The notes beneath the pieces are model-generated. The model was given only the letters and a program-made list of their open reading frames with translations, did no database searches and was not told the origin of the DNA. This document shows, one piece after another, positions 39,052 through 64,000 of a DNA stretch of 64,000 nucleotides (position 1 is the first letter of the stretch; each line of letters begins with the position of its first letter). The translations under genes and the position numbers were made by a program. Origin of the DNA: Obrimoposthia wandeli (taxonomy: Eukaryota); NCBI GenBank assembly GCA_977020255.1, contig CDROCS010005070.1, positions 186,001 through 250,000 of the forward strand. Direction: 5' to 3'.

Positions 39052-39919
39052 TTGAATATTATTTGATTAAGTAAACAAATGCAAAGAAAAATAATAAATT
39101 TGTTGACTTTTTTATATTTACTATTAAAATTCATTGCTTATGCATTCTCAAATAAATATTATTTTCTTAATATTTTGAACATATAATTGCATTATAATTT
39201 TCAAAATTCAATATAAATAGTAAATATTCTATTTAGAATCCCAATATGCTGCAATCTAGGCCTGATTAAAGTTCATTTGGTATGGATTTTCAGGTTTTTC
39301 TTTCAGATGAGAATTTGGATAATACTTTATAAGCATCTGATTTCAATGATATTCTCTAGTAAATTTTAAATCAAAAATATGGAAGTGGAGCTACGTATTA
39401 AATATTTAACATTTAGAATTAAATTATTTCATTATTACATTTCATATTGATTTTAAATCAATCCTTATAAATGAAGCCATTAAGTTTCAGAGCAAATGCA
39501 GAGAGCATAGAATGTTAGAAATTCGGTTTTTTGTTTATCTTTGAAAACAAGTTTTTAAGCAATAAAATATTACTTTAAATGAAAGTTACAAATCTGTTTC
39601 CATTTTTTTCGGTTACAAATGAAGCTAGGTTTAGAGTTTGTGAGAACCGTATTGTGTTTTTCTTTCTCGTTCCGGAATTATTTTCGCATTTAAACATTAA
39701 ATAAACTTTTATCGACACTTTAGGTGGGAATTTTATTTCTCAGTGACAATAATTCGATACAGCCTGACTCATTTTTGGAAATATTAAAAGAAAAGCAAAT
39801 CAAAATGGATAAATCAACTTTGCACGAGTTAAAGTTTCCTGTAAAATGAGTTTCTTATTTTATATGTTTAGTTTCCTTGACAAAAAACCGTCACTACAAT
39901 ATTAGTAATTATCGATATA

Positions 39920-41218: not shown

Positions 41219-43039
41219 TATTATTGCATCTTCATGATATAGTAATGATATTAAATTTATTATGAAATGTCAAATACATTTGAGGATCAAAATATAAAAT
41301 GGGATAGATAATATCTTGCGGGCATCTAAAACTTAATAACTCTGTAATTTCTCCAATTCAAAATTAGAAACAAAAAATCAATAGTATAAAAAAAATTCAA
41401 GAACCTTGTTAAATCAAAGTATCCCAAATCTATTAGCTAACATGGTCTTAATACCTGTAAAAAACTATCCATTCTGTACCATAAAATTAAAACAACAACA
41501 AAATGTCTGAAAATATCATAGAAACAACAAAAGGTTTATAAGTAATTTGAACCCTTAAGCAATTAAATTAAAATCTTTTGAAATGTCTCTCTAAAATAAA
41601 ACAACATTTCAAAATTTTGTAACTTTTAAATCCAAATTATCCTCTAGACATTCTTATTAAACTGTACAACTACAGTAAGAAATCAATACTATTGAAATAA
41701 CGCTGTCGATTTTAAAGAAAATCATTCTGGAAATTATGAAATTTCTTGTAAATTTTTTTTTAGACAAATGGAAGAAAACTCCACTATCAATAAGTCGACA
41801 AACGACAAAGGGTTGAAATATTGCTTCCCTATGTTATTTTATATTGTTACTTTAGTTGTACAAATATCATAAATTTGGTGGTTTTTGTACATTTTGTACA
41901 TCACTACTGCTAATAATAATATTATTAATAATGTTAATGAGGATTATTATCGCAATGCTCATAAATTAGTTCTTCTTCATTTTCAAGAACAATTCAACCA
42001 TAGAATGACACATGAAATCCTGGTCGGGAAATTGGACTAACAAAAACCGGGCCTCAATGTAAATGCACGCATATTGTGAGTCAAGTTTTGTCGAATGTGT
42101 ACGCGGCACCGAGAACGTTACATTGAAGAGAGAAGTATGGCCAAGTAGTAGTAGGGTTAGTGGTAGCAGTATCAGCAGAAAATTCAGTAGTAGTAGAAAG
42201 AAGCTGAAAAAGATTTATTGTTATTTCGTACACTAGAAGAGAAGAATCCCATATTTTCTTGCTGTATACCCATGGATTTATGGGTAAATAGGAAAAACCA
42301 AGCCAGAAATCCAGATAAGAGGGAGTATGGAGCGTGAAAACGAAGCATACACGTGCATTGAATGCTGGGTTTTCTTAGCTTCCGAAATTGTCAAAGTGTA
42401 GCAGCCCAAAATCTGGGTCAAAACGTTGCGCAAGACTGCAGTTTTCAGAGCGCAGAAAGAAGCTTCAAATAATCGCTAGAAGAAAGTTTTAGTGACAATA
42501 AAATCGGCGGAGACCAAACATTATCATTAGGAATATTAATATTATCATTATACTGTCATTGTATTTGGAATCTTCCTCCCACACTCAGATCTCCAAATCG
42601 GATTGTCGATTTACTGCAGTGTGTCTTGTGGATCGGTCCCCTTCGTCTTGTCAGCTCGATTTGGGAACGGGAAACGACAGGCCCAGACCAAACGCTTCTC
42701 AGCCAATCAACTCAGCTGGGAGATTTCTCTAGCAGAGATCATTTGCGAATTAAATGACTTCTGCTGGCTTGTAGATGATGTTCTTCCTGCTTAGTTGCAT
42801 TTCTTCAGCAGCCTTGTGTTGTGTCGTACTGAAAAATGCAGCAGCAGTGCGGATAATAACTGTGAGTGTGTGTGTATGTGTGAGAGATTGCCTACTTGCT
42901 TATTTGACTGTTTAGAATATATCGACAGACGTGTGTGTCCGGCTGTGTATGGATGTAAACCGTCCAGCGCATTTCATGGAGCAGCCGATTATATAAAAGG
43001 TGCAAAAAGTTACTGTAACAAGCATTTTAGGTTTAAGCA

Positions 43040-46000
43040 ATGCAACAAAATTATGGCAGCGTTTCTCAGTTGGTCGCTGACAATTGTGTAACTGCCAATA
43101 ACTACTCGGTATTGTCTCTTCTCGACCAGGATCATCCACTCGACCTTTCTAAATGTGTCCGGAAATCTCTGGACGTAAACAACAATAGTAACATCGGTGC
43201 TGCTAGCGTCTCCCAGAATGCCAACATCAGCAATCCACTTCTGGAAGCGCCATTCGTCATGCAAAAACTCTTCGAAGAGCTCCTGAAACGCCGCACGGAC
43301 TGGCCCTCTCCCTACCCCGGGTCCAGCAACAGTGGCTTCTTCCCACCACTTCCACCGCCACCTCCGCTCGACCCGCGTCTCCAATGGACCTCTTTGTGGC
43401 ATCGACTGATGAACAGTGTCGCCCAGCAGCACTCGACACCGAACAGCAGCGGCAAACTACAGAACCCACAATTGGAGACTCGCCGTAGACCGACTTTGTC
43501 ACCGCGCTCCCTCACAAAACAGCGTCACAAGCGAACCAAGGTAACCGACTCGAGACTCTTGAAACGTGCTACAATCGGGGGTGAGGATCCTAGCATCGAT
43601 TTCAGCAGTTCGGCGCTGATCAACGAGGATGAAGACTACGAAAATCGGTCCATCCTGTCTCGGTCACCTTCGGTTAACGACTCCGAACTGGATGATGAAC
43701 CCAACAACCTCAACCATAATTCCAACATAAGCCAATCATCTTTGACTGCCGCCAGTTTGTGCTGTAATGATCCTAAGAAATATACATTAACTCCGGTACA
43801 TTTGCGCAAAGCCAAACTCATGTTCCTTTATACTCGTTATCCCAACTCCCAAATGCTGAAGAGCTTCTTTCCCGACATACTGTTTTACAAACAAAATACG
43901 GCTCAGTTAGTCAAATGGTTTAGTAATTTTAGGTAATTTTTACGTTTTATTAATTTGGAAATATTTTCAGTTCACGTAACCAATCAGAATTTGATTTAAA
44001 GGTTTTTTACTTTTTCAGAGAATTCTACTACAGTGAAATGGAAAAGGCTGTTCAAAGGTACTTATCCGGCGGTATCAAGTTCTCAACTGAACTCATTGTT
44101 ACTGAAGACAGTGAACTATTCAAAAATCTGATGACACACTTTAACAAAAATAGCCAAATTGAGGTCAGTACTGCAAAATTGCTTCAATTTTGTATCTTCT
44201 TGAGAATTTCAACCATTAAAATAGTCGAAAAATAACAGATCAGATAAAAATTTATGAAAATCCAATTTGATCTAAACAAATAAGAATTCATTTCAATTCA
44301 TTTTAATAATTCTGGCGAATGAGAGAATGTAAAATTTAGAAAATTAGCTGAAGAAATTAAAGAAATTTTTCAAAAGTTTTATTAAAATATACTATCACTA
44401 TTTTTTTAGAAATATAAAATTCAAAAAATTGATCAATTTTAACTTTTTCAAAATTTATGAATTTATAATGGCAGATATCAAGGTTTAGACGTTTTTTTAA
44501 ATAAACCGTATTTAAATATTTTAAAAAATCTGTAGTTGTCTATTTGATTTATTTTTAAATTTTGATTATCTTATAATTATTGTGGCCATTGAGAAGAAAT
44601 TTTATAGACTAAATAAAGTATAGTAAAAATCATTGTAAAAACAGGAAAAATATTGTCTTTATAACTTACATAATCCATGTTAGCAGCATGTACCATGTAG
44701 CAATGATATTCGGAATTATTTAAATAACGAACTTTAGCTTGATTTTACTTTTTTTTCAAACTTTACAATTGTGAATAAAAGTCTTAATAAAAATTAATTT
44801 AATTGAAATTGGTCATATAGATTGATCAATTTTATAAAATCAAATTTTAAACTGAAAAACTGGATATTGGGACTCTACTAGTATGCATTGTGCTAAGAAA
44901 TCGGATTATAAAGAAATGGTTACAAAGGTCTTTTGGGAATATTCTAAGAAATTTCTGATTGACATACTTCAAGTAAACAATACAATTATTTTCATTTCAA
45001 TGGTCGAAGAAAACAGTTCTGGACAATATTTTATTGTGTTTTCTCACGCTAAATTGTAGGAAATTATGTTGGTTTTCAAAGTTAATATTGTAACAAATTT
45101 CTATCCAACATTGAAAATAGTTTGAATACAGAAGATTAAATCTTAAATATAAAAAAGACTCTGTTTATTTGTTTTATATATGTCTTTGGATGTATTATGC
45201 AATGAATTTTCATATTAAACTTATAACTTATTTCAATGATTTTATTTTAAAAAATTAAACATTTATAAGAGAATAATCTGAAGTTTCATTTAATCTAACT
45301 CATATTAATTTTATAGGTTAATGATATTAAATTAGCGAATTTATGCTTAAAATTTGCTAAATACATCTATTAAAATAGAAAATCCGTAACAGAAAACGAT
45401 AAAAGGTCTAGTTTTAAGAATGATATAATTTAATTTTTTAGCTTATTTAAATATATGATTTTAAATAAGTCAAATATAATTTTTCTATTTGAAAATAAAA
45501 TTAACTATATTAAAAGTTATATTATTTGTTAAATAATAATAAAATAAATTTGAACTTTAAAATAAATAAAATGTAATTATATTATTAACTTTAGTTTTTT
45601 TATATGAAACAATTAGTATAACCTACACGAATAATAGTAGAAAATAATCTTTTCAAAATCATTTTCGTTTAAAGGTATGACAATTTAAGGACATTTAAAC
45701 AAAGATATTTTAATCTTTAAGTTTAAAATTTCTCATTTTTGCAAGTGTATAGAAATTATGAATGAAAAAATTATGCCAGCATTAATATTTAGGGGTATAA
45801 TATTTAAACTGTTAATAGATAAATTAAATTGTATCAACAAAGTTTTTTTACAACTCAACATAAACAGAATATACAGGGTATTTCTGAATAGCCACATACT
45901 TTTGTTTTAACATTATTTTAGATTTTTGTAAATAATGCTTTCTTTAATAATTTTAAGATAAATAAGTGATATATCTTATAGTATGTAGATTAATAAATAA

Positions 46001-47198
46001 AAATTAAACAATGTATTATCAATTTTCATAGTTAATTAATAATATGTAATTGGAAGCAATAAAGTAAATTATAAAAATTCATTGTAAAATACAACATTCA
46101 CTGAAAGAATAGATCAAACAATACATATAAGAAAAGGTTTGAATAAATTCGATTGTAACAAATGTATTTTCTGTCAAAAATAAAATATATTTATGGAATA
46201 AACTCAAGCTATGAGGTTGATAAAACATATAAAAACATTCTAAATCGTAACAATGTTTATTTGAACAAAATTAAGGAAAAATAATTGTATTTATTTAGCA
46301 TAAATTTTGTATTTATCTAAAAATATTGTCAATCAATTTATAATAAAATATAATTAACTTTTGTAAATGCTTTATATAATTAGAATTGATAAATGACTAA
46401 ATATATAAAAGAAGTTTTATCGTATTGAAAACTATATTATAGATAATAAAATTATATTTTTTCAAATTAAAGTTGTTATCAACACCCTTATTATAGATTA
46501 AAACAAAACTATGACATTTGCAAGATGATTTATAATTATATTTTTAAAATAAATTTCCAGGCTCAATAATTTTATATTTTACATACTTTGTGTATAAGTT
46601 TGATTTATTTGATCTGTCTTCGATTTATTTAATAGTTCATTTTTATCTTTTAATTGCAAATTAGGTACAAATTAAATATAAAATAGCAATAATCAAGATT
46701 TAATTGTTAAAATGTAATTCAAATTATTATAATTTTTATAATTAATAATAACATATTTTATTTAAAGCCTAAAATGTATAAAAACATTATAACCTTAATT
46801 TGTATTTCTGAATCCAGGTCCCAAAGGAGTTTATGATGTGTGTTCAAGTGACCCTACGTGAGTTCTATGAGGCCATTTCTGTGGGCAAGAATCTTCACCA
46901 ATCCTGGAAAAAACCTATCTACAAGAATATCGCCAAACTCGATCAACCTCTACCGGAGTTCTTTCGAGATCTGTCCTGGATGTTAGAGCTAGCTCGTGAT
47001 GACTCTAATAGTGGTAGCAACAACGGGAACAGCAACAACGGGAACAGCAACAACGGCAGTAATAACAACACCAACAACAACAATGTTTTGCTTATGGCCA
47101 GTCACCCGCATCATCATCACCACCACCAGCAACAGCAGCAGCATCAACTGCATGCTCCAGCTATGCATCCTTCCATCCTTCATCATCAGAGCTGCTAG
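43040..47198 (+). CDS. pros: Prospero/Prox homeo-prospero transcription factor; exons 43040-43932, 44019-44163, 46818-47198 (472 aa if 43040 is the start)
   Basis: [31 protein letters not shown]|[25 protein letters not shown]|[32 protein letters not shown]; GT-AG introns preserve frame (1419 nt). Upstream exons cannot be excluded. Confidence 0.95.
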
Positions 47199-50790: not shown

Positions 50791-52649
50791 TTATCCACAA
50801 TTTCAATTTGCGACCAAAAATACGAGAGGAGAAACACGAGACGACGAAAAGACTGAGATGAGAAACACAAGACACATGGTAGCAAGAATGGAATTGTTCA
50901 GCGATGATCGAATTTATGATTAAGTGTCTCCTGAACGCTGTGTAAACCTTTCATATACAAGTTGATGTGAAGAAATCAACACATTATTTCCAAAACACCT
51001 ATTTTGTTAGTTTATTTAAACTCTTTTAATAATTTGTAGAAAATGGGACGAAATCAGTTTCTTTTAGCAGCTACTAAATGACTGAGTAAGGTTTTCTGCG
51101 AAAAGAATTCAAATCTAAATAATTTAGATTTACTATACTATAAGTCGCTGATCAAAACGTAGATAGTGTGACATCGTAAACTCTTATCAATGTATATTTT
51201 TATTTTCGAACTGCATTGTCTATATCCGCTATGAGCAGTTACTTTTCCCAAGCTCAATCTTGCTATTTCCTAATAAAACTCATAAACATGCCGCAATTTA
51301 ATTATACAACCACGCTCCATAATTGAAATTATTGCATCTGCCAAAAACATAGTTAAACTTCTTCAAAAATAATTTATGTTTCATCAGATTTTTGATAAAC
51401 TATAATTCAAATATGGGATACAAAGATGGGCTGAAGTCGGACCTAGCCATCAATAAAACAGCTGTTAAATTCAGTTAATTTCACTTATTTTACTAACCTA
51501 TATGTTTATAAATTTTATTCTTTCAAAATATAAACTTTTGAGTATTGAGTATTTGTAAGTAAACTATTGTATTAAATATTATTTTTATTATATTTTATTT
51601 TATCTTTAATTTATCTTCTGCAGGTTTTTTCCTTATGAATAAACTCTAAATTGTTATATTTGATAAATTAAAATATTAAAAAATACCATATTTTTGTAGC
51701 TCTTCGCATGTTTTTATATTATTCTTTTTAAATATGTCGTAATTAAACATAATGAGCTCCATAACAAAAAATTACGATATATTTCAATTTTTAATAATTA
51801 AGGATTTTATTAGTCAAGGATTTTCAAAGTTCATAATGCTAAAATTTCATATAATAAATTTGTAAATTATTAAAATTATGCTATTATTTTATAAGTTAAT
51901 AAACATTTTTATATTGTTATTATTTTGTCCTTTTTGTTATTTTTAAATATTATAATAATATTTCTATATATTTCTTATCTAATAATTAGGATTAAAATTT
52001 TTATATTTAGAAATGAAAAAAAAACAGCTTTAATCGGCATTTTTTGCTAATGGCGATTTTTTTAATGTTTACAAGGGCAATGTCCGACTAATGCCCAAAT
52101 ATGGATAATTTTGTTTGTTTAAGGCCAGAAACGAAATAATTTTTAAAATAAACTGAGCATACCCAATAATTCAACATAATAAAAATAGAGCCAAATAAGC
52201 ACATTTTAACTCTTATTTGACGAGTTTGTTGACAGTGTGTATAATCTTTTCATATATATTTATAATTGTCTTATGGAAGACTCTAGTTCGTAAGTTATTA
52301 GTGGTGTAGGTATTATATGTGGTCTCAAAATATGAAGACTAGATATTTTGAGTGTTCATCTGTTCGTCTTATAAAGACACAAAATTTAATTTGTTAATTA
52401 TATTTTAGGAATTTCAAAAATACAAGATTGATTTGAATAATTGTATGTGAAGTGAGCGCTCTTTCAATGTTGTATTTTCTAGCTTATTGTAACTTGTGTG
52501 GCTTTCCTTGTTAAAATATCGTTAAATGAAACTCTGCTTGTGGATAGTTGACAAATTGGCTTCTGTCGTTAATTCCAAACTCTACAACTCTGAGAATTTG
52601 CTGTCTCTCCTTTTGTTTCGCTGACAGAAATTTGCTTTAAATTATTACA

Positions 52650-52758
52650 GAAAACTATCTAGATCACGCAGTATCAGCAAAAGGAATACAACCAGACGAG
52701 AGTAACGTAGAAAAAATAAAGAATGTTCCGATTATTAAAACTGTGAAAAATATACAAT
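52650..52758 (+). pseudogene. Fragment of an older Gypsy RT, cut by the LTR insertion
   Basis: ENYLDHAVSAKGIQPDESNVEKIKNVPIIKTVKNIQ parallels FLGHIVSKEGIRPDPAKIEKVKAHLAPKTVKEIQ at the window end. Confidence 0.75.
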
Positions 52759-53275
52759 TGTTGGGGTTTCTATACGAAACTTGGTATAGATCCTCTTGAG
52801 TGCGGAGGGCCCCAACGTGAGTTCGATTAGAAGCAGGTCTTAAAGTTGGTCGTGGCCTACTTAGTGTTATTATTGCCTATCTCTTGTACTATCTGAAGGT
52901 ATTTGATTAGATGTCTCTTAGTCTGAAGGGTGCAAAAACAACTTGTTCTAATGTAGGAAATTGTTTATTTGAAATTCACGTAACTAACACAACGATACGT
53001 TTATGTACGTATTTCTAAAAAGTATGATAAAATTCCTAAAGGACTTCTGTAAGTCTCTACAAGAAGTGGGGATGAACCACGTATCGATTTTACGTTCAGG
53101 TGATTAAGCTTTTAGGTTTATTCTTCTTACTTAGGTTGGTTAATCTATAACGCAACTCTCTTAAAATTCTTCGCTCCTACTTCTGATCTTTAGATAAAGT
53201 TTCTTGATCCCTTAACTCTATCTGTTGTGTGTTTGACCCCAAATTGTCCACTGTGAACAATGGGTCTCCTAAAAC

Positions 53276-53674
53276 CTAATTGTCAAGATGACAATGAAAA
53301 ACTTACTCCTAATTGTCAACTATGGACAATGAACGAGCCGAATTGTCAGCTAGGGACAATGAGTCTTACCGAATTGTCAACTAGGGACAATGAGTATTTA
53401 TCCGAATTGTCAACTAGGGACAATGAATGAACCTAATTGTCAGCTAGGGACAATGAATCTTACGGGCAAAAAGTCTGGGTATGATTCCTAATTGTCGCTG
53501 GGGACAATGAATAAATGGCTGATCTTAATTACCAACTAGGGGCAATGATTTTGTTAAAGAGTCGGAAATCCTAATTGCCAGCTAGGGGCAATGAATATGT
53601 TTAAAATATGTTAAACAACCTAATTGCCAACAAGGGGCAATGAATTTATCCTAATTGCCAACTAGGGGCAATGA
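53276..53674 (-). repeat. Array of ~11 short palindromic units (ATTGTC-N7-GACAAT / ATTGCC-N7-GGCAAT) with variable spacers, inside the LTR
   Basis: Units begin near 53276, 53309, 53339, 53370, 53403, 53432, 53487, 53525, 53571, 53619, 53651. Confidence 0.9.
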
Positions 53675-53798
53675 ACGGTTTTAGTTGGTGTTCTTACCAG
53701 TTACTGCGACTAGTGGGACGTCCGATGCAGGATCCGTAGGTCTTTCGGAATCTTCTTCGAAGCAGCGATTATTACTTGTGAGAGGTTTGAGTACACGC

Positions 53799-54220
53799 TT
53801 GAATACACTTTGACTTTGACTTTTTGGACACTTGAATACACTTTGACTTTGACTTTTTGGATACTAAACAATTATTTTTATTCACAGCAATTATTTTTAT
53901 TCACCTTGAATACACTTTGACTTTGACTTTTTGGATATTAAACAATTATTTTTATTCACAGCAATTATTTTTATTCACCTTGAATACACTTTGACTTTGA
54001 CTTTTTGGACACTAAACAATTATTTTTATTCACCTTGAATACACTTTGACTTTGACTTTTTGGACACTAAAACAATTATTTTTATTCACAGCAATTATTT
54101 TTATTCACCTTGAATACACTTTGACTTTGACTTTTTGGACACTAAACAATTATTTTTATTCACCTTGAATACACTTTGACTTTGACTTTTTGGACACTAA
54201 AACAATTATTTTTATTCACC
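53799..54220 (-). repeat. Tandem array (7 cores; units 33-75 bp) inside the LTR
   Basis: TTGAATACACTTTGACTTTGACTTTTTGGA core repeated 7 times with variable CAATTATTTTTATTCAC sub-repeats. Confidence 0.9.
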
Positions 54221-54230
54221 TGAAATCACT

Positions 54231-54331
54231 ACTTACCGAGAACTCAATTGTTCGATTTGTGGTCCAGTCGACTCTGGCTGTTGAATCCCGTATTTGTGTT
54301 TTTGAATTGAATGAACCTATCTCCTTATATA
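54231..54331 (-). promoter_or_regulatory. LTR promoter TATA box (54331-54324) and downstream 5' splice donor G|GTAAGT (54237|54236)
   Basis: TATATAAG then G|GTAAGT occur in the same order in LTR A (13376-13369; 12970) and LTR B (35771-35778; 35997). Confidence 0.65.
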
Positions 54332-55001
54332 AAGGCAGTCTTGTCAATCAAATGACAGCTGATTCGTATCGCTGGAAATTTCTTCTTACTTAAGATCTAA
54401 AAATCAATAAATCCTATTGCACTTAAAATGTGCTTACCTTGACGTCTCTTGATTGACGTGACTAATTGATTTCCTAATTTAATGGCTTCTCCTTAATTAA
54501 TCTTAACAATTGTCCTTTTTGGGTTAATTAATTTAACTTTTATACATTTTCACATTATACACGACCTTCGTGGTCCTCCTAATTTTTACCCTAAATTCCA
54601 CTAATTTTAATTCTAACTAAAATTAATATTTTAATTTAATTTTCAACCTTGTTTTCAAGGATTTTTATTTTAGTATTTAATCGACTAAATATTTAAATTT
54701 CTTAATTCTCAAACCTAACATACCTCGGGGGTTCCAAAAAAGTTACGTCCCCGGAACGTATCGATTTTACTTAATAAGCCTTTGGCTGTTGATTTTAGGT
54801 TCATCCCTACAAAATCAATCATTCAACTTCAACAAACATGCCCAAAAAATTTTCCTCAAAATCCCGGTTTTTAGTGGGAGACATAATATATAATTTGGAG
54901 CAAGTCTCAAACCATACATTATTACTTATACACAACTAAAAATTTACACACAAAATTACATGCATAACTAAGGGTTAGGAAGGAAAGAAGGGAGGAAAGG
55001 A

Positions 55002-55532
55002 TCAATTGTCATATGTCAGGTCAATTGTAATTGTCGGCTGGTTCCGACTGGCCAGGTAGCGCAGAACCTGCTCCAGGGGTAGGTCGGGAAAGGACGGACT
55101 GTCCCCGTTGTACAGGTGTAGTTGTTGGCTCCGGGTTAGGTGTGGACTCTCGATGAACAGGTCGAAATGCTGCCCGTTTATGGCGTGATTTTCTATCCAG
55201 TGCCGTCTGGCCTGGAACCACGAGTGGCAGTCTCGACTAGACCGCCATCTCTCGCGGATGCCCAGTTGTGTGTCGCGCCGGCGTGCGAGACACACGTAGC
55301 ATTGGCAATGTATGCCACCAATGCAGCTGGCAGGCGATCGGGTGCCCTTGTGCCTTCCACGGCTCTGGAGCGTCCATTTGGCAAAGGGTGTCCGGCACAG
55401 TGGACATGTGATATGGCCGGGGGGTCGAGCCTTGGTCCACAAATAGAGGCACTCCTCGTGGAATTTGTGACGGCAGCCGACAGGGGATGCTGATACCGCC
55501 CAAATCTTCTCCATGCATACAGAACACTTCAT
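55002..55532 (-). CDS. RING-H2 protein 3 with extra Cys motif and C-terminal extension (176 aa from MKCSVC)
   Basis: CSVC..CRHKFHEEC..W..CPLC, then CIGGIHCQCYVC; acceptor TTTTCTTATGCAG directly before the ATG. Confidence 0.85.
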   Translation of the reverse strand: MKCSVCMEKIWAVSASPVGCRHKFHEECLYLWTKARPPGHITCPLCRTPFAKWTLQSRGRHKGTRSPASCIGGIHCQCYVCLARRRDTQLGIRERWRSSRDCHSWFQARRHWIENHAINGQHFDLFIESPHLTRSQQLHLYNGDSPSFPDLPLEQVLRYLASRNQPTITIDLTYDN

Positions 55533-55872
55533 CTGCATAAGAAAACAACTCCTTTCAATTTGGGGTTCACTGTTCTCATTGTTAATTTAAATTTTATTTC
55601 AAAACGAATCCTTAGTTATCTAATCCTACCGAGTTTTGTTTCGATTTTAGGCATGTTTACGCATTCACACTAAGCATAAAAATTGTCTTTTTTAGAAATT
55701 CAGTATAATAATTACAATTTCAGTTAAACATCATACATAAAAATGGTAATGGTCAATTTACAGTTCACAAGATTATATAATTATGATTACAATTATGGTA
55801 GCTAATTTATCGCGGTATGCGATACACAGGGTAGTTCATGATATCACGTTCAAGTCAGAAAGTTACCTTCGA

Positions 55873-56178
55873 TTATTGTTGGGGATTGGGCTGGCCTGTG
55901 CTTCGCTCCTCCACGCAGAACGAGCACCAGCAATCGCAGATGGTTTTCCAGCAGTGTACGATGGGTACCACTGCTTGGAGGCTGTCCTGGTTGTACACGT
56001 AGTGTACTGAGAAGGTCGCTCTGCACATCGGGCAGGTTGGGAAGTCGAGGGGATTGTTGCTGTTTGCGATGGGGATCCACGTCTCGAGGCATTCGACGTG
56101 GAAAAGGTGGTCGCAGTTGTTGGGCTTGGTGTAGAAGTCCACGATGCTCTCGTAGCAGATGGAACATTCTCCAGACAT
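55873..56178 (-). CDS. RING-H2 protein 2 (101 aa)
   Basis: CSIC..CDHLFHVEC..W..CPMC, then CWKTICDCWCSFC. Confidence 0.9.
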   Translation of the reverse strand: MSGECSICYESIVDFYTKPNNCDHLFHVECLETWIPIANSNNPLDFPTCPMCRATFSVHYVYNQDSLQAVVPIVHCWKTICDCWCSFCVEERSTGQPNPQQ

Positions 56179-56238
56179 TACTGTGGGAGGGTTGATGTTG
56201 AATTTGGGCTCGATTGAGGACTGGTGGTTGTGTGATGT

Positions 56239-56538
56239 TTACACAAAAGTGGTCTGATTTTGTCGATCTGACAAACAGTAATAACACCAACACTCTCCGA
56301 AATTCTTCCAACAGAATACCACCTGTACATATACATCCTCTTGGTTGGGTTCTAACATGATGAATCTTGCGAATTGTCTTCTGCATACAGGGCAACAAGG
56401 GTATGTTGGATGTCCGAACTGTCCATAAGTTCTGATCCATGTCGATAAACATTCCTCGTGGTGTAAATGGCTGCAGGTTTCGGGTCTTGTTCTTCGTTCG
56501 GTTAGATCTTCCAAACATATTGGGCATTCTTCGGACAT
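56239..56538 (-). CDS. RING-H2 protein 1 (99 aa from MSEECPIC)
   Basis: CPIC..CSHLHHEEC..W..CPVC, then CWKNFGECWCYYC. Confidence 0.9.
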   Translation of the reverse strand: MSEECPICLEDLTERRTRPETCSHLHHEECLSTWIRTYGQFGHPTYPCCPVCRRQFARFIMLEPNQEDVYVQVVFCWKNFGECWCYYCLSDRQNQTTFV

Positions 56539-56661
56539 TCTAAATACATGATGATGATTAATTTCTACATGAGTTTTATATATTTCTACTATTTGTACAA
56601 TCACTTCTAGATATTTCTAAACATTTCACACACTAATTTATCTACAACCTCCTCTGACTCA

Positions 56662-57711
56662 TCATATCTTGATGGGAGGCGGAGGTAAGGGTCGCAATTC
56701 CACTTCCTCCATGATGGGTGTGTCACAGCATCGCAATCTTTCGCATTTTCGTCGTATTCCTGGGCATACTTGACTGCCTTTTACGCACACGATTGTCAAT
56801 AGAACCACTGCTGTTGACACTACGGCCATTCCAATTAGGGCATTGACCGCTGTTATTCCGCTGTCTGATGATTTATAATCATACTTCATTTTGTTGTTTG
56901 TCGGTTCGAATGACATTTCCATGGGTTTTGATCGGTTTCCATGTATTATGTCCGATTTTCTAAAAATTCGGGGATTTGGGTGTTTTGTTTCTGATGGAAC
57001 AGGTATTATTATTTTGGATTGGAAATGATGTTTGGGATCTAGTGGGATCGTTCCCCTCACTCTTGTCCTCTTAATAATTGTACTTTGGTTTCTGGGATTG
57101 AGCTCTTTTTCTTTCGCTTCTGTCTTTGTTCTGATCACTGTCGGTTTTTTGGAATGTCGTTTACTTTCGTTTACTTTTGCCTTCTTTCTGACTAGGATTG
57201 GCCTTTTGGGAATGATTTTCCTGGGTTTGATACTTATACCGGATCTACGAAATCGACGGTTCTGGTATCTTAGAGTTATGTAGAATATTTCACCTGTTAT
57301 TATCATGATTATGGTCGAGGTCTCTGTAGTATTACTGGAAATTCGATTACACAGACATTCTGTGTTAAAATGTGGTACTAACATTTGGCTTTGGATTTCG
57401 AATCTGATTCCGCCATCTGGGTTGGGACACATTACTGTTACTCTGTCGGTCTCTAGCAATCTGAAAAATATCCTAACGGAATTCCATACGGCTTTACGTC
57501 GTCTACCTGTGATCATAATCCTGTCGACAATTTTCCAGATGCGTTCATCTCTAGGCAATATTAATGACTTTGTTCGGATACTTTGGATAATCCGCTTCCT
57601 CTTCGATATTGTTATCCGTAGGTATAACACTTTTTCATGATACAATAATATTAAATTGTAATCGGGTGTATTTTGGTCGATTTTTATTCTGACCTGTCGG
57701 ATGACATACAA
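56662..57711 (-). CDS. Basic ectodomain + C-terminal TM + Cys/Pro-rich tail; probably the C-terminal part of the preceding ORF
   Basis: 349-aa open frame, open upstream to ~57780; sequons NTT/NES/NQS/NRS; RFRR; TM ITAVNALIGMAVVSTAVVLLTIVCV; tail CC..PLPPPP. Confidence 0.75.
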   Translation of the reverse strand: MYVIRQVRIKIDQNTPDYNLILLYHEKVLYLRITISKRKRIIQSIRTKSLILPRDERIWKIVDRIMITGRRRKAVWNSVRIFFRLLETDRVTVMCPNPDGGIRFEIQSQMLVPHFNTECLCNRISSNTTETSTIIMIITGEIFYITLRYQNRRFRRSGISIKPRKIIPKRPILVRKKAKVNESKRHSKKPTVIRTKTEAKEKELNPRNQSTIIKRTRVRGTIPLDPKHHFQSKIIIPVPSETKHPNPRIFRKSDIIHGNRSKPMEMSFEPTNNKMKYDYKSSDSGITAVNALIGMAVVSTAVVLLTIVCVKGSQVCPGIRRKCERLRCCDTPIMEEVELRPLPPPPIKI

Positions 57712-57772
57712 TTTCTGATCGATATTGTCGGTTGCTGACGTCTGTAGATGAATGTCTACTACGTGATTTGTT

Positions 57773-60700
57773 TTAGAAGGGGGTTTCTATGTATACTGCC
57801 CGTATTACGTCTTGTCTCCATTTACTGATCATGATCTCATAACTAGCCTTGGTAGTGGTGATTTGTATGATCAGCATGATTCCTATGATCGTTCGATTCC
57901 TAAACTCAGGAACTTCAATGAAACAAGTCAAATTACTCATATAGTACGGTCTTTCCTCGATATGTTCATATATCGTTGGCTGGTACTCTGGTGCTGGTTC
58001 ATCTAGAAATGGTGGTCTTGGTATAATTGTGTTGAATTTTTGTAAGTTCATTTGACCTGTTCGTCTTGCGAGATCATGACGTTTCTTTTTTGATCTCGAC
58101 TCTATCTTTGTACAACAAAACAAGATGAGTAATATTAATATTATAAATCCAATGATCAGTGCGAGTATTGGATTAATCAATTCTAGAATACCGTAACGTA
58201 CTGCTGGTATTCCTTTACTCTTGATGGTTAATATTTTAAATTTGTGTGCACTTTGGTTGGATATGTCACTGAGAAGTACTATTTTAGTTTGTCCAAATGT
58301 GTAGTCTTCACATGTGACAACATCAATTCCATAATGTCTATTAAGTGTTTTCATTTCGGTCGCTGGAACTATACATATCCGTCCTGGGCATCCTTTTACA
58401 CACATGATCATTACAGCTTTACTGTAGGATGTCTTGATTATTTCTAGGGTGTTGTCTAGATTTCTCAAATGTAAATTATATTCGGATAGTGTCATCAATT
58501 CGGCTTTACTGGTTGGCATGGCTTGCAGTACCAATCCAATTACTACTCCATAAATCAATCCTTGTGCAACGGTGCACAGGGCCTTGACTGACCTTTTGCA
58601 AAGGGTTTTAATTATCAATCGTTTAAGAGATATCTGTTTCTGATTGGATCGTTTTGTTGTCTGTCGTTGTTTTGACATCTCCTCGATTCCATCTCTTCCG
58701 ATAATCAACTGTACCGGTTTACCTTGTATCGTCAACTTTCCCAATCCATTTTTGGCGGACAAGCATGTTTTATGTCCTTCCATCGTTTCAATTATTACTC
58801 TCTTACTTCCATACTCACGTGTTTTGATGACATCGCCGTCGAATATATACGTTGGTCCTTTTGTATCAGCATCTTTTTGTATTTCCTTTACAACTCGTTT
58901 TCTTCGCTTGCATCCGGCGAATGTTGTTGATATTCGGTCAAGTGTGCGCTGTCGGTCAGCTTCGTAATCTATTCGAAATTGATTCAGTATTCTGTTTTGT
59001 GGGTAAAATATCGCTTCATTTACTATGTTGTCCTCGATCCTTTCGTCTAGATACACAAGCACTTTGTTCGTTGGTCCATTTGGTCTTTTCATCTTTACAA
59101 ACTGAAATCTTTTACTGTCGGTTCTCATAGATCGAAGACATTTTCGGATGATCCACACATCAATTAGTCCTAACAACACTAATAGCATCATCAGTGCCGG
59201 CGTATGGTACTGTATGGTGTAGTTGTGGATATCGATGAACCAGGAACTATTTCCGTGGTTGGAGCCTATCTCCTGTGCTCCCGTTATCGGCATTAAACAA
59301 CTTAACAAGCCTATCGCTAGCAATCTTTGGTATTGAAAGCTGGGCACTGTTGTTGTAGCTTCATTTGTTTCTCGTTGTTGTTTCCTCTTTTCGGTGTATT
59401 TCTCTATTTCTCGAACGAGTAACGGTTTGAATTCCGTATTCGGTCTATTCTGTTTGATGTAGACCATCGCTTCTTCTGGCGTGTGACCATGGTACTCTAC
59501 CAACAAGGATACACCTATGGTAGGCGCTAACATTGTACCTTTTTTCTGATATATCAGAACGCCGTTTCCTTCTGTGACTTCAGCTTGGATGGTTTGAGTC
59601 AATTTCGTCAGATGTTGTTGTGCATCGTTTATTTCTCGATTGGAAGCATGTATGTATCGAGTGGTGTCGTCTTCAGTATTTTGACACAGACTAATTATCT
59701 CGTTTCCGACTTCAACAATGTTGATTACTCGGTTGATACTGTGGAACTTTAATCCAGCAGTATCTATATCTCCTGGATGACATAAAAATACTTTTGGCAT
59801 TATCTGTGTAATTTTGTCGACTCCGGCTAAGAATAACCCGGTCAACGATAATGCTTGGAGGAAATTCTTTTCCTTTGGGTCCTCAGGAATGTCGTCCATC
59901 CGTCTTTGTTCTTGCAACAGAAGTTGGTAATTTGCCAACTGTCCCAAAAAATTAAGATTTGGGTTTGCAATACTTCTTCTCTCCTGTAGGTATTTTAGCG
60001 CTTCTAGTACCTGCATTCGTCTAGTCTTTATTAGGTATGCTAATACTAGAGTTGCTGATCGAGAAATTCCTTTCTGACAATGTACCAACACTTTTCCTTG
60101 GTTCCGGAGTTCTCTGTGAAGTATTTCGTTTGTTTCTACGAACCATTCGAGAAGATTAGCGTCCATTGAGTCTTTTACTCTTAATGTCATAGCTCTGATC
60201 GTCTGATATTGTGATTTGTGATTCATTGTAACGTTGATCACGTATGTTATCCCTTGTTCCAACAGTTTCTTTTCATCTGTTGCATCCTCCACATTTCCGA
60301 GGTATAACTTACCTGGAATGATCTCACTCATTGGTGGCATTAATTCTGACTCTTCAAGTTTTAGTCTTTCTAATCTCTTCTCTATTTGTTCGTCGATGTT
60401 GGATAGTTTCGCCAGTTTCTTTCCTCTCAGCATTCGTATTGCTGGAGAGATATTCATCTTTGTCTCTGATGTCTGTTCCTTTGTTGAGTCTTCTTCCGAC
60501 TCGGTCTCCTCTGCAGATTTAATTCGTCTTTCTTGTATATTCTGTTTCACGAATTCTATGTTTTGTCTTTTTCTGCTCTCTTTAGCGAATTCAATCTCCA
60601 TGGTTCTTCCGAATCGCTCTATTATGTTATCTTCGGATTCTGTTGATTCTGTATCGTTACTCTCCGGTTCGCTGTCTTCACTAGACTCGCTCGAAGGGTA

Positions 60701-61687
60701 TTCTGGTATGTCTGTCTGGACTGAAATTAATGAAGGGGTTAGAATAATTGGATTGATTTCCCCTTCGTATTTGTGAATCGGATACGGTATTACACTATCT
60801 TTAAGTATTTCAACTTGGAACTGTGCTCCATAGCACATGACAATTGTTTCTAATTTACCCATGATGGACAATCCATCAAAATAGGTAACATTCAGCTTAG
60901 ATATCGGTGTCTTCGCATAATTAATTAAGTTTACTCGTATCTCAGTTGATGACGGCCATCGATTTTTTAGTAAAATTATAATTTCGTCGTTTATCGATGT
61001 GATCACACTTGGCGCGGATGATACTATTTCAGCATGATATTTTGGCTGGATTGAGTTGGTCACTTGTTCTCGGATCATATTGATTCTTAGTGGTTTTTTA
61101 TTTTTAGCTTCCCACTTCCGGTATCCGCTGTCAATGCGTAACTCTGCCGTTGCTTTGATGATTTTATTGTTAGCCACTTCCGGTTGGGTCGGCGAATGAA
61201 ATCCTTCTATTACGCTCAACCTTACAGATACTTCCGTTTGATCTGTATCTAACCGGTGAGATTCTGGTATACAACATACAATTGTCTTTCCGTCAAAGTA
61301 TTTGGTGTCCATCTGACAAATTATCTTTTCAGTGTCAGCGTCGATTAAATGGACTCTCATGATATCTCTTTTCCCATGTGAATTACGTAATACCATTATT
61401 ACATCGTGGTATTCTTGTTTGAGTCTTTTTGGTGTACCATGCAGTATGTGACCACCGGCCGGTTCCTTCTCTTCCTGACTGGCTAGTCCTGCTTCAGTAC
61501 TGTCATAGTTCTGCCATGCAACTATGTTTGGTGTCAATGTGATTTCGATTATCACTTTCTCAGTCGTAAACACATTGGAATTTTGATAAAGTGCTGCGAC
61601 TAATGTATTTCCGTCGTAGTATGACACTCTAAGTTCGCACAGAAATTCGTTTGTCAGTGCATCTTTCACAATGACTTCTTTAGCCAC
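57773..61687 (-). CDS. 1304-aa cargo ORF: Ig/IPT-like repeats, dual-specificity phosphatase, pseudophosphatase, multiple signal/TM segments
   Basis: YFDG/YYDG repeats; SEIIPGKLYLGN..D..VLVHCQKGISRSATLVLAYLI..NPNLNFLGQL (DSP); second DSP-like fold with VLIYQKKGTMLA. The called start is a GTG, and the frame overlaps the integrase end. Confidence 0.88.
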   Translation of the reverse strand: MAKEVIVKDALTNEFLCELRVSYYDGNTLVAALYQNSNVFTTEKVIIEITLTPNIVAWQNYDSTEAGLASQEEKEPAGGHILHGTPKRLKQEYHDVIMVLRNSHGKRDIMRVHLIDADTEKIICQMDTKYFDGKTIVCCIPESHRLDTDQTEVSVRLSVIEGFHSPTQPEVANNKIIKATAELRIDSGYRKWEAKNKKPLRINMIREQVTNSIQPKYHAEIVSSAPSVITSINDEIIILLKNRWPSSTEIRVNLINYAKTPISKLNVTYFDGLSIMGKLETIVMCYGAQFQVEILKDSVIPYPIHKYEGEINPIILTPSLISVQTDIPEYPSSESSEDSEPESNDTESTESEDNIIERFGRTMEIEFAKESRKRQNIEFVKQNIQERRIKSAEETESEEDSTKEQTSETKMNISPAIRMLRGKKLAKLSNIDEQIEKRLERLKLEESELMPPMSEIIPGKLYLGNVEDATDEKKLLEQGITYVINVTMNHKSQYQTIRAMTLRVKDSMDANLLEWFVETNEILHRELRNQGKVLVHCQKGISRSATLVLAYLIKTRRMQVLEALKYLQERRSIANPNLNFLGQLANYQLLLQEQRRMDDIPEDPKEKNFLQALSLTGLFLAGVDKITQIMPKVFLCHPGDIDTAGLKFHSINRVINIVEVGNEIISLCQNTEDDTTRYIHASNREINDAQQHLTKLTQTIQAEVTEGNGVLIYQKKGTMLAPTIGVSLLVEYHGHTPEEAMVYIKQNRPNTEFKPLLVREIEKYTEKRKQQRETNEATTTVPSFQYQRLLAIGLLSCLMPITGAQEIGSNHGNSSWFIDIHNYTIQYHTPALMMLLVLLGLIDVWIIRKCLRSMRTDSKRFQFVKMKRPNGPTNKVLVYLDERIEDNIVNEAIFYPQNRILNQFRIDYEADRQRTLDRISTTFAGCKRRKRVVKEIQKDADTKGPTYIFDGDVIKTREYGSKRVIIETMEGHKTCLSAKNGLGKLTIQGKPVQLIIGRDGIEEMSKQRQTTKRSNQKQISLKRLIIKTLCKRSVKALCTVAQGLIYGVVIGLVLQAMPTSKAELMTLSEYNLHLRNLDNTLEIIKTSYSKAVMIMCVKGCPGRICIVPATEMKTLNRHYGIDVVTCEDYTFGQTKIVLLSDISNQSAHKFKILTIKSKGIPAVRYGILELINPILALIIGFIILILLILFCCTKIESRSKKKRHDLARRTGQMNLQKFNTIIPRPPFLDEPAPEYQPTIYEHIEERPYYMSNLTCFIEVPEFRNRTIIGIMLIIQITTTKASYEIMISKWRQDVIRAVYIETPF

Positions 61688-63057
61688 ATCTGTCGGTTGT
61701 GTTTTTCGAAAACAACTATTATCTCTTCGTCTTCTTCTAATATCTCTTGTGGTGCGATGTGTCGGATTACTTCCTTTTCCTCTTGGTACTTCATTCTGAG
61801 CATACCAATTCTCGCTGGTTTTTCCTTGCTACCACTCGTCATCATGTTTATGTAGTTCCGATCACTTACCATTCGTGTAAGTTTAATGGTATTGGTATTC
61901 GATTTCGATTTCTGTGATCTTAACTCATATCGTGACGCATTATCTTTATTTGGTACTAATTTGCATCGATTTGCATGTACAATCATCGGTTCCTTGTTCC
62001 GATTCTCTTCGTTGATTACTTTCAAATTTGTTGAGGTTGTCTGGATCACCTTGTATGGTCCTTTGTATGGTCTATGAAGTTTAAACGATAGACCTGGTTC
62101 GATGACTGGATAAAATATCATCACTTGATCTCCGACTCTAAATTCATGTGGTTTTGCTTTTTTGTCGTATTGTTCCTTGTAACCTTCTTGATTGAATTTC
62201 AACTTCAATCCGGCTTTGGTCCAAGCATCTTGTAACCTTTCCTTCATAACGACAATGTATTGTTCAGTTTCTAGATACTGAGATGTTGGCTCGGTCCACT
62301 CCAGATCCATTGGCATATTGTTCTGTCTGAGATACATCAGATAGAATGGTGTGTGACCCGTCGCCTCTCGAACTGAATTCCTGTAAGCATATAAACATGA
62401 AGGTAAATATTTATCCCAATCCTCTTGCTTGTCGGAGCAATAGGATTGTACCATCATACATAAAGTTTTATTAAACCTTTCTACCAGACCATCTGTCTGT
62501 GGGTGATATGGTGAAGTTTGCAACTTCATGATTCCGAATATCTTCGATACTGCTTTTATGACTTCTCCAGTGAAGTTCTTACCTTGATCTGTTAACAACT
62601 TTCTAGGCACTCCGTATCGAAATATTATCTCTTCCACTAAGATTTGCGCTATTGTTTCAGCTTTCTGGTTCTGCATGGGATATGCTTCTACCCATCTCGT
62701 CATGTAGTCCGTAAATACTATGACGTACTTGTTTCCTTTACTTGATTCTCTCAATGGTCCCAATATATCCATCGCTGTGAATTCCATTGGTGCCAAGGGA
62801 ACTGGCATTGGTTTCAGTGGAACTTTAGTACGAGTTCCGGTGTCTTTTCTGGTTAAACATACTTTACATTGTTTACACCATTGTTTTATGTCGTCTTCCA
62901 TACCATCCCAATGGTACTTCTCTTTGATTCTGGCTATTGTCTTTCGCCCTGACAGATGTCCTCCTAGTGTTCCGTCGTGATACTGGATCATCACTGCTGT
63001 TTTCAATGACTTCGGAATTACTACTACTATCTTTCCGACATTATTGACAATATACAA
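61666..63057 (-). CDS. Gypsy integrase (HHCC, DDE, GPY/F) with a C-terminal extension; frameshifted from RNase H
   Basis: HDGTLGGH..CKQC, AMDILG, LTDQG, DGLVERFNKTL, PYKGPYKV. Confidence 0.95.
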   Translation of the reverse strand: MYIVNNVGKIVVVIPKSLKTAVMIQYHDGTLGGHLSGRKTIARIKEKYHWDGMEDDIKQWCKQCKVCLTRKDTGTRTKVPLKPMPVPLAPMEFTAMDILGPLRESSKGNKYVIVFTDYMTRWVEAYPMQNQKAETIAQILVEEIIFRYGVPRKLLTDQGKNFTGEVIKAVSKIFGIMKLQTSPYHPQTDGLVERFNKTLCMMVQSYCSDKQEDWDKYLPSCLYAYRNSVREATGHTPFYLMYLRQNNMPMDLEWTEPTSQYLETEQYIVVMKERLQDAWTKAGLKLKFNQEGYKEQYDKKAKPHEFRVGDQVMIFYPVIEPGLSFKLHRPYKGPYKVIQTTSTNLKVINEENRNKEPMIVHANRCKLVPNKDNASRYELRSQKSKSNTNTIKLTRMVSDRNYINMMTSGSKEKPARIGMLRMKYQEEKEVIRHIAPQEILEEDEEIIVVFEKHNRQMWLKKSL

Positions 63058-63068
63058 GATTCCTTCTT

Positions 63069-64000
63069 TTATCGAGTATTTTTCGTCATTTCATCGTTTA
63101 GATCTCCTTTCACCAACAATTCTTTGATTAGACTCAGTTCTTCATCTTCTGTCTGTTCTTTGATGATTTCTTTGTCTATTTTACCCGTCTTTAGCAAAAT
63201 CGTCAGTAGATTTGCTTCTCCTTTTTGGTCATTGGCTCCATCTTCTTCTGGAATTATGTTTCCTTTTTCATCTACATTTGTCAATCTCGATAAACAATCT
63301 GCGTTGCCATTCGACTTTCCGGTTCTATAACGGATTTCTAGATCGAATTCGGCCAATTTTAGAAACCATCTGTTTAATCTACTCATCTCATCTCTATGTT
63401 TATATAAGAACTGTAGTGGTTTGTGATCTGTATACAGGAATACTTTTTGTCCTAGCAAATAGTGTCTGTACTGTCTACATGAATACACTATGGCTAGACA
63501 TTCCTTTTCGATAACAGAGTATCCTCTTTCGGCTCTGTTTAATCCTCTACTTGCATACTCAATGACGTGTTCTCTTCCTTCGTCATCCTCTTGTCCCAAT
63601 ACTGCTCCTACAGCATAGTTACTTGCATCTGTCATGAGTATGAACTGTCGGTTTATATCTGGAAACGCTAATATCGGTGTTTTTATCAATCTTTCTTTTA
63701 AATGCTCGAACGCTTGTTGGGCTTCTTCTCCCCATATGAACTTCTCATCTTTTCTCGTCAACTTTCTCAATGGTGTTGCTATATCTGAAAAATGTTCAAC
63801 AAATCGTCTATAATAATTCGCAAGACCTAAAAAACTCTGTATCTCCTTAACAGTCTTTGGTGCTAAATGCGCTTTTACTTTCTCGATCTTTGCCGGATCA
63901 GGTCGAATGCCTTCTTTCGATACTATATGTCCTAAAAATGTTACTCGCTCTTTAGCCCATTCGCATTTTGTAGGTTTAACTTTTAATTTAGCGTTTTCCA
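63069..64000 (-). CDS. Gypsy Pol: RT C-terminus/connection and RNase H (5' truncated by window)
   Basis: Open frame from the window end: KCEWAKERVTFLGHIVSKEGIRPDP..SFLGLANYYRRFV..TDASNYAVGAVL..EKECLAIV..YTDHKPL..NADCLSR. Confidence 0.96.
   Translation of the reverse strand, partial: ENAKLKVKPTKCEWAKERVTFLGHIVSKEGIRPDPAKIEKVKAHLAPKTVKEIQSFLGLANYYRRFVEHFSDIATPLRKLTRKDEKFIWGEEAQQAFEHLKERLIKTPILAFPDINRQFILMTDASNYAVGAVLGQEDDEGREHVIEYASRGLNRAERGYSVIEKECLAIVYSCRQYRHYLLGQKVFLYTDHKPLQFLYKHRDEMSRLNRWFLKLAEFDLEIRYRTGKSNGNADCLSRLTNVDEKGNIIPEEDGANDQKGEANLLTILLKTGKIDKEIIKEQTEDEELSLIKELLVKGDLNDEMTKNTR

Follow-up and report, generated by a model that had tools for sequence, protein, structure and literature searches.

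Introduction

Retrotransposons are usually viewed as countering their hosts via chromatin and small RNA. Some of them carry further protein domains. The planarian giant Gypsy element Burro (GYPSM1) encodes a single polyprotein with BIR, BCL2-like, ankyrin, MATH and RING-related domains, and this cargo is thought to meddle with apoptosis and ubiquitination (PMC6431247). Long terminal repeat (LTR) elements of bdelloid rotifers and orchids have extra open reading frames (ORFs), with captured enzymes downstream of pol (PMC5408684, PMC9289625). Captured phosphatases are found in viruses, and baculovirus PTP2 has been proposed as a mitogen-activated protein kinase (MAPK) phosphatase (PMC5923475). 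Here we analysed 64,000 nucleotides of the Obrimoposthia wandeli genome (assembly GCA_977020255.1, contig CDROCS010005070.1, positions 186,001 to 250,000; hereafter the window), which hold the 3' part of a Ty3/Gypsy retrotransposon. Behind its integrase the element encodes two tandem domains with the fold of dual-specificity phosphatases (DUSPs). The first has the complete catalytic residue set and the second has lost it.

Results

Motifs of the two phosphatase domains

Domain 1 and domain 2 follow one another on the minus strand (Table 1). Against the Pfam DSPc profile, domain 1 scored 122 bits (E 2e-35; curated cut-off 33.5 bits). Domain 2 scored 29.3 bits (E 8.7e-7), slightly below the cut-off, with profile positions 2-120 of 133 covered. 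An initial annotation, made from the letters alone, had read the locus as tandem DUSP-fold domains, the first with a full catalytic set and the second dead, and had proposed the DSPc search as a check. Every motif that it named was found, on the minus strand, at the positions given below.

The phosphate-binding loop (P-loop) of domain 1, HCQKGISRS, lies at 60082-60056. It agrees with the definition of the DUSP loop, H-C-x-x-G-x-x-R-S/T, in which the Arg anchors phosphate (PMC13577060). A VKDS motif starts at 60178 and contains the general-acid Asp (codon 60172-60170), an invariant column in the alignments, and an NPN motif lies at 59965-59957. Judged by its sequence, domain 1 carries all catalytic residues of a dual-specificity phosphatase, and it is predicted to be active.

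In domain 2, motifs typical of the fold start at 59812 (ITQIMPKVFL), 59737 (INRVINI) and 59479 (PEEAMVYIKQNRP). The loop reads YQKKGTMLA at 59551-59525 (YQKKGTML, 59551-59528) and is without His, Cys, Arg and Ser: Gln stands at the Cys position and Leu at the Arg position (G-T-M-L compared with G-I-S-R). By alignment, the general-acid Asp is replaced by Asn (59641-59639). The loss of the catalytic Cys that had first been noticed is thus real but understated, as Arg, His, Ser and the general-acid Asp have gone as well. These replacements mark domain 2 as a pseudophosphatase without a recognisable phosphate pocket. A possible third loop of this type at residues 1102-1156 of the long ORF (about 58525-58360, minus strand) scored 0.5 bit, which is chance level.

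Aligned as proteins, the two domains share 30 identities over 153 columns with a score of 50. Shuffled sequences (n = 500) gave a mean of -15 (SD 10.7, maximum 20.5), so that the real score lies about 6 SD higher. At the DNA level, no similarity between the domains above that of shuffles was detected.

Fold comparisons

The two-domain model had a mean pLDDT of 84.7 and a pTM of 0.58. Domain 1 matched MKP-2 with Z 24.5 (rmsd 1.2 Å over 143 residues). Domain 2, modelled alone (pLDDT 82), matched DUSP5 with Z 17.8 (rmsd 2.3 Å over 134 residues). The phosphatase fold was therefore found in both domains by Pfam and by modelling; both models were built on DUSP alignments, and they show fold compatibility that is not independent of the sequence evidence.

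The initial annotation had taken domain 2 for a STYX-type trap, which would hold phosphorylated substrates in its dead active site. The DUSP fold is retained, STYX (Z 17.6) ties with other proteins for the top fold match, and two loop lysines might hold phosphate. The fold ties are uninformative on function because many active DUSPs are among them. All three STYX proteins retain Gly-Ile-Ser-Arg in the loop (PMC8269279). In domain 2 this stretch is Gly-Thr-Met-Leu within a rewritten loop, and Asn replaces the Asp. Because Leu stands where STYX proteins have their phosphate-binding Arg, and the Asp is missing too, domain 2 does not belong with them. The label was given up, and we consider a substrate trap improbable.

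The fold scores also bear on whether domain 1 is an RNA 5'-triphosphatase (DUSP11/BVP type) by which element RNA would escape 5'-triphosphate sensors. Piracy of this kind occurs in avipoxviruses (PMC12058148) and would be plausible for an RNA-based parasite. However, the baculovirus RNA phosphatase and PIR1/DUSP11 matched domain 1 with Z 14.4 and Z 13.1, about 10 below MKP-2, and no RNA triphosphatase was found among the best 60 of 77 PDB sequence matches. An RNA-directed enzyme is very unlikely on these results.

Position within a Ty3/Gypsy element

RNase H and integrase ORFs lie directly upstream of the pair on the same strand and an LTR-type end lies downstream, which bears out the retrotransposon setting proposed initially. 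The order reverse transcriptase (RT), RNase H, integrase is of the Ty3/Gypsy type. The window covers the 3' part of the element; gag, protease and 5' LTR lie outside it. The LTR end at 52759 is supported by related ends at 12278 and 37150, which match it with about 72% identity across the final 57-113 bp, terminate in the same AACA and diverge beyond it. Since this end is supported, the RING genes, the membrane ORFs and the phosphatase pair all lie inside the element. The polypurine tract at the candidate LTR start is atypical.

Frame changes were found at three places in the present copy, near 63080, 61700 and 57780. They represent decay, sequencing error or recoding, among which a single sequence does not discriminate. 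The first Met of the long frame is at 61396, inside repeat 2 of the three repeats that precede the phosphatases. Repeat 1 is interrupted by the frame change near 61700. Its first part is encoded by the last ~45 codons of the integrase ORF, which resemble the opening segments of repeats 2 and 3 (z 3.5 and 3.0), whereas the first codons of the long frame do not. Because repeat 1 begins in the integrase frame and no Met precedes 61396, integrase and cargo were probably once one chain.

The repeats had no match in Pfam or the PDB. Atlas TIG clusters scored 0.89-0.90 with low recognition, which is a weak lead. The repeats carry a YxDG motif and are predicted to lie on the cytosolic side.

Could a host phosphatase gene adjoin the retrotransposon or have been mis-assembled into it? 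The frame changes between segments could be assembly errors, and one copy was seen. Against this, the domains are intronless, repeat 1 begins within the integrase frame, composition is as in pol, the pair is enclosed by the integrase and the LTR end, and relatives show the same slot architecture (below). Such an artefact is highly improbable.

Relatives share a cargo slot

Nine proteins matched the integrase at 57-61% identity, and the other 111 of the 120 listed reached 43% at most. A tenth relative, on a GTDB contig (L002), had 56% integrase identity; a second contig, L001, is that of protein P0206. In a quick integrase tree (54 of 122 possible rows), the ten relatives and the window formed a single clade with SH-aLRT 100. 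An integrase-end motif was present in 9 of 9 proteins, in L002 and in the window, and in none of the 111 other matches.

The relatives (P0205-P0213, L001, L002) have the order protease, RT, RNase H, integrase, with RNase H and integrase sharing one frame. Their pol continues in frame into a slot, which is followed by a signal peptide, a cysteine-containing ectodomain and a transmembrane (TM) helix. The slot was nearly empty in seven of the ten. In P0207 it contained an extra protease, and in P0209 proteases together with ankyrin repeats. P0210 has two protease domains there and terminates before any signal peptide. The relatives' type I membrane protein shows repeated two-cysteine units that look like FN3, and P0213 has a further membrane unit ahead of its protease. 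The ectodomains of the window and the relatives showed no significant similarity (best -0.7 and -0.4 bits; shuffles reached 4.2 and 5.6), so that downstream of the slot they share layout alone. These relatives reveal an exchangeable cargo slot and membrane proteins without a recognised family, in a Ty3/Gypsy clade that is apparently undescribed.

Among long proteins of 626-2000 residues holding the pair, there were 53 matches in 6116 candidates, none with retroelement Pfam domains. No protein among 837 candidates of 2366-5000 residues held the pair, and the phage collection gave no match to it. The GTDB contigs contained 24 integrase loci, two of the same clade (L001, L002), with no DSP domain in the six-frame translations of any. 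The Ty3/Gypsy integrase loci L001-L021 lie in contigs of bacterial metagenome-assembled genomes and most likely represent eukaryotic contamination of the bins.

Origin of the domains

The best PDB sequence matches of domain 1 were MAPK phosphatases (MKPs): DUSP10 (E 6e-25), DUSP4, DUSP1 and DUSP2. Giant-virus DUSPs matched it at up to E 2.4e-13 and 30% identity (best 50 matches), and the fold match was about as good. No dead partner and no retroelement occurred among the best 50 viral/DUSP matches. A MAPK docking-like motif before domain 1 was at chance level (3 in the ORF and 5.2 in shuffles). The initial annotation had named STAT beside MAPK signalling; nothing in the domain 1 data pointed to STAT as a target.

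Domain 2 had a very long branch in the tree (6.15). Constraining the two domains to be sisters raised the log-likelihood by 21 units over that of the free quick tree, and this topology was not rejected (p-AU 0.77). Both domains also have Lys at loop position 4, a residue present there in 2 of the 58 loops of the comparison set. From these sequence comparisons, an origin of domain 2 by duplication within the element is likelier but unproven. Both domains are intronless, lie in a single 1351-codon frame and are ~20% identical to each other. Their A content (0.39 and 0.38) equals that of pol (0.38-0.40), and host prospero exons have 0.27-0.29; because of this A-rich composition, both domains appear to be long resident in the element. 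In a neutral simulation, none of 2000 copies of 141 codons reached 25% identity without a stop. As no neutral copy stayed open, domain 2 appears to have diverged under selection and not by drift in an unconstrained frame.

These results also bear on a passenger origin, in which template switching brought a host DUSP into the element and doubled it, without benefit, and the pair is now decaying with the present copy. The pair was found in a single element of the libraries searched, the copy has three frame changes, and the branch of domain 2 is very long. Nevertheless, the frame is open despite the low identity between domains, base composition is fully element-like, domain 1 keeps all its catalytic residues and both domains model as folded. 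We regard a mere passenger as quite unlikely.

Proposed role of the pair

The reading that we prefer, and hold to be about evenly balanced between right and wrong, is that the pair is captured phosphatase cargo, tethered to a membrane on the cytosolic side, that damps host kinase signalling, with MAPK signalling the likeliest target. The intact catalytic set, element-like composition, open frame and MKPs as best PDB matches support it, and so do the DUSP fold retained in the domain 2 model, the variable slot of the clade and the precedents of Burro cargo and baculovirus PTP2.

According to this proposal, a complex Ty3/Gypsy element would have taken up the pair as cargo of its polyprotein. Translation would join pol and the accessory region in one chain, as it does in the relatives; in the window, the straddling of the frame change by repeat 1 suggests the same. 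Hydropathy suggests that the repeats and both phosphatase domains would remain cytosolic, and that a signal sequence directly after domain 2 would tether all of these to the endoplasmic reticulum (ER) membrane; the membrane proteins further along the chain would be released later, presumably by proteolysis. Domain 1 would be a working cysteine-based protein phosphatase, as its residues predict. By analogy with viral DUSPs and the cargo of Burro, it would dephosphorylate host signalling kinases, most likely stress MAP kinases, and stress, apoptotic or defence responses would be blunted during replication of the element. Domain 2 probably goes back to an old duplication, after which its whole phosphate pocket was lost, and it was probably kept for a non-catalytic role in docking, dimerisation or regulation. 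In this it would resemble the second domain (D2) of receptor protein tyrosine phosphatases (PTPs), perhaps substituting for the kinase interaction motif (KIM) missing from domain 1. The three RING-H2 genes, if their products are active E3 enzymes, would supply ubiquitin ligases to the same host-interference kit.

Several observations weigh against this reading. At loop position 4, where domain 1 has Lys, Ala or Val is found in 20 of the 26 human DUSPs, and DUSP28 activity is lowered by a bulky residue (PMC13577060). Because this Lys is unusual, domain 1 may be weak or selective. The MKPs are defined by an N-terminal rhodanese domain with a KIM (PMC6227380), and Pfam found no rhodanese/KIM domain in the 1351-residue ORF or the part upstream. 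The tree placed domain 1 outside the MKPs without support (an MKP-grouping constraint, with DUSP8/16 as named references, was not rejected, p-AU 0.55), and its fold matches to MKP-2, Slingshot and STYX were tied within 1 Z unit. The pTM of the two-domain model indicates no fixed packing between the domains, and domain 1 was only 27th of 43 sequence matches to domain 2. Owing to the three frame changes, the full chain is not producible from the copy as sequenced. A second copy of the pair was not found among 1.84 billion representatives: the best 150 of 21,445 matches (E <= 0.001) were assessed and none was close, and the best single-domain identity was 46%. Finally, a DSP domain was found in none of the ten relatives, for which mostly polyproteins with little flanking DNA are visible. 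The pair therefore appears to be private cargo of the window's lineage and dispensable for the clade. Absence from sister elements had been named at the outset as evidence against the idea; the domain is indeed absent from all ten, but at 56-61% integrase identity these are other families and not copies. The evidence base is one broken copy.

Alternatively, the targets of domain 1 may be proteins of the element itself (Gag, integrase or an export factor) while particles assemble, much as virion proteins are targets of poxvirus VH1; domain 2 would then be a spacer or scaffold. The phosphatase is made in cis with pol and adjoins the integrase, a protein of the Cer1 retrotransposon is controlled by phosphorylation (PMC10309623), and poxvirus VH1 acts on viral as well as host proteins (bioRxiv 10.1101/2020.05.26.100743). 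However, ten relatives replicate without a phosphatase, and the other slot and downstream cargo (ankyrin, RING, IPT-like) suggests host signalling. Domain 1 was also nearer to cellular DUSPs (Z 24.5) than to the viral enzymes orf-virus OH1 (Z 18.0) and baculovirus PTP2 (Z 18.6). We think this alternative unlikely.

A bolder form of the damping of host signalling is offered tentatively, and we doubt it more than we believe it. Here, a previously undescribed Ty3/Gypsy lineage would load a slot between integrase and a type I membrane protein with signalling-interference domains, in the manner of complex viruses. The present member would combine an ER-tethered DUSP, a dead twin turned into a new substrate-docking domain that replaces the KIM, decoys of IPT-like type and a set of three RING E3 ligases, which together would silence host stress or immune signalling. 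It would then be the first of all retrotransposons to encode a protein phosphatase.

Other features of the element and the window

The features of the element are listed in Table 1. The 374-codon ORF had no match in Pfam or Atlas. No match of the membrane units to F-type or gB-type fusogens, the glycoproteins of errantiviruses (env-carrying Gypsy elements), was found in Pfam or Atlas, and an Rfam search of 52000-64000 returned 0 matches. The three RING-H2 genes (56538-55002, minus strand) have a C-terminal Cys cluster in common. Third-position C content was 0.57 in gene 2 and 0.37 in gene 3, unlike the rest of the element, and these C-rich third positions suggest a different or later origin of the two genes. 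Tandem arrays lie in the putative LTR at 53239-53684 (~30-nt units) and 53798-54254 (55/75-nt units, AATAAA-rich).

Table 1. Positions of the features of the element in the window and the evidence for each.
Feature	Position	Strand	Evidence
RT end and RNase H of Ty3/Gypsy pol	63069..63998	-	Pfam RT_RNaseH E 7.5e-39; runs past the window's right edge
Integrase ORF (H2C2 zinc finger, rve core)	61666..63090	-	Pfam Integrase_H2C2 E 7.4e-19, rve E 7.6e-13
1351-codon accessory polyprotein frame (repeats, phosphatase pair, membrane units)	57773..61828	-	ORF analysis
Three ~100-residue repeats, weakly IPT/TIG (Ig)-like	60725..61800	-	Repeat-repeat z 10.5, 7.6, 2.2
Acidic/charged linker, ending in a helix before domain 1	60335..60724	-	Sequence; helix H2-20 in the model
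Domain 1, predicted dual-specificity phosphatase	59912..60334	-	Pfam DSPc, PDB DUSP10, fold to MKP-2
Domain 2, predicted DUSP-fold pseudophosphatase	59393..59815	-	Pfam DSPc, model compared with DUSP5
Signal-like stretch (59323-59267), segment bearing two N-glycosylation sequons, TM helix (59203-59147); probable membrane anchor for the phosphatases	59147..59323	-	Hydropathy; sequons at residues 860 and 869
Second unit of predicted signal peptide (58582-58526), ectodomain and TM helix (58168-58112)	57776..58582	-	Hydropathy
Predicted proline/tyrosine-rich tail, then third signal-like stretch at ORF end	within 57776..58582	-	
374-codon ORF, ectodomain and C-terminal TM helix (56838-56782)	56662..57786	-	In a different frame from the long ORF, whose end it overlaps
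RING-H2 gene 1	56239..56538	-	Pfam zf-RING_2 E 5.6e-9
RING-H2 gene 2, paralogue of gene 1	55873..56178	-	zf-RING_2 E 7.7e-9; alignment score 216 to gene 1
RING-H2 gene 3	55002..55541	-	zf-RING_2 E 2.5e-7
Putative 3' LTR, TGTT...AACA, 1962 bp	52759..54720	-	3' end 52759 supported; start 54720 candidate

The window is AT-rich. Host prospero exons, which indicate animal DNA, lie at 43037-47198 on the plus strand (Pfam HPD E 5e-22 and 3e-16), and the element ends ~5.5 kb downstream of prospero on the opposite strand. Two LTR 3' ends of a related family, at 12278-12750 (minus strand) and 36700-37150 (plus strand), are about 70% identical to one another over 454 columns, and similarly so to the end of the element described here. 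A Tc1/mariner-like transposon with 33-nt terminal inverted repeats and a DDE_3 ORF occupies 39917-41221. Decayed remnants of protein-primed DNA polymerase B (Polinton-like) were seen on the plus strand at 9340-12082 (weak DNA_pol_B_2, E 5e-4) and, by eye only, at 33714-34995.

Discussion

Among the papers listed in the literature searches (in three of them the top 25 of 1002, 25 of 30 and 15 of 32; Repbase/Dfam, the original Burro paper and supplements outside their scope), no retrotransposon-encoded protein phosphatase was found. The available text of PMC6338049 and PMC13524379 does not mention one, and the words "phosphatase" and "DUSP" are absent from that of the Burro account (PMC6431247). 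Two candidates were rejected: a "phosphatase domain" in a retroelement is a LINE endonuclease (PMC9025612), and what is called a "ring" in Cer1 CERV is a multimer of that shape and no RING finger (PMC10309623).

If the proposed role is correct, a phosphatase under selection in a Gypsy polyprotein would represent direct interference with kinase signalling, which is so far known from large DNA viruses. The idea that cargo-laden elements such as Burro meddle with their hosts would also become testable with one small soluble enzyme.

Among cellular proteins, the MKPs DUSP10, DUSP4, DUSP1 and DUSP5 are closest to domain 1 in best sequence or fold match, HCxxGxxRS loop and general-acid Asp. They differ in possessing the rhodanese/KIM region; domain 1 is without it, has Lys at loop position 4 and lies inside a retroelement polyprotein. 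STYX, MK-STYX and STYXL2 share with domain 2 a DUSP fold without the catalytic Cys, but they keep G-I-S-R, whereas domain 2, which follows an active domain in the same chain, is without Arg, Ser, His and Asp.

Tandems of an active and a dead phosphatase domain occur in cellular proteins. The D1-D2 pair of receptor PTPs is such a tandem, membrane-tethered and with a non-catalytic dead domain, but it is of the classical PTP type and cellular (PMC8269279). Cellular tandems of a DUSP and a dead DUSP (P0064, P0089, P0098, P0115, P0155, P0102, P0069) have the same order as the window's pair and a similar linker, of 30-40 residues. The active-then-dead arrangement was present in at least 7 of the 43 multi-match representatives examined. 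The dead domains of the cellular tandems form their own clade (support 100) apart from the window's domains. Because the cellular tandems are unrelated to the window's pair, the arrangement appears to have arisen repeatedly. Five of the cellular tandems (P0064, P0089, P0098, P0115, P0155) form one family that looks fungal by eye, with dead domains in a supported clade. The A-B tandem of the cellular Cdc14 subfamily also combines an active with a dead domain, and the dead one comes first.

The DUSPs of viruses (poxvirus VH1, baculovirus PTP2 and the giant-virus enzymes) are phosphatases captured by a parasite, as in the element described here, but they are stand-alone single domains of large DNA viruses. 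The extra-ORF elements of rotifers and orchids have, in the available text of their accounts, esterase, exonuclease or demethylase cargo in separate ORFs and no protein phosphatase (PMC5408684, PMC9289625). Burro, likened to the window's element by description only, has env between gag and pol, whereas the cargo and membrane proteins of the window's element follow the integrase (PMC6431247). The architecture of an active plus a dead phosphatase is not itself new. The phosphatase pair adds a new kind of cargo to a familiar type of element, here from a clade that is apparently undescribed.

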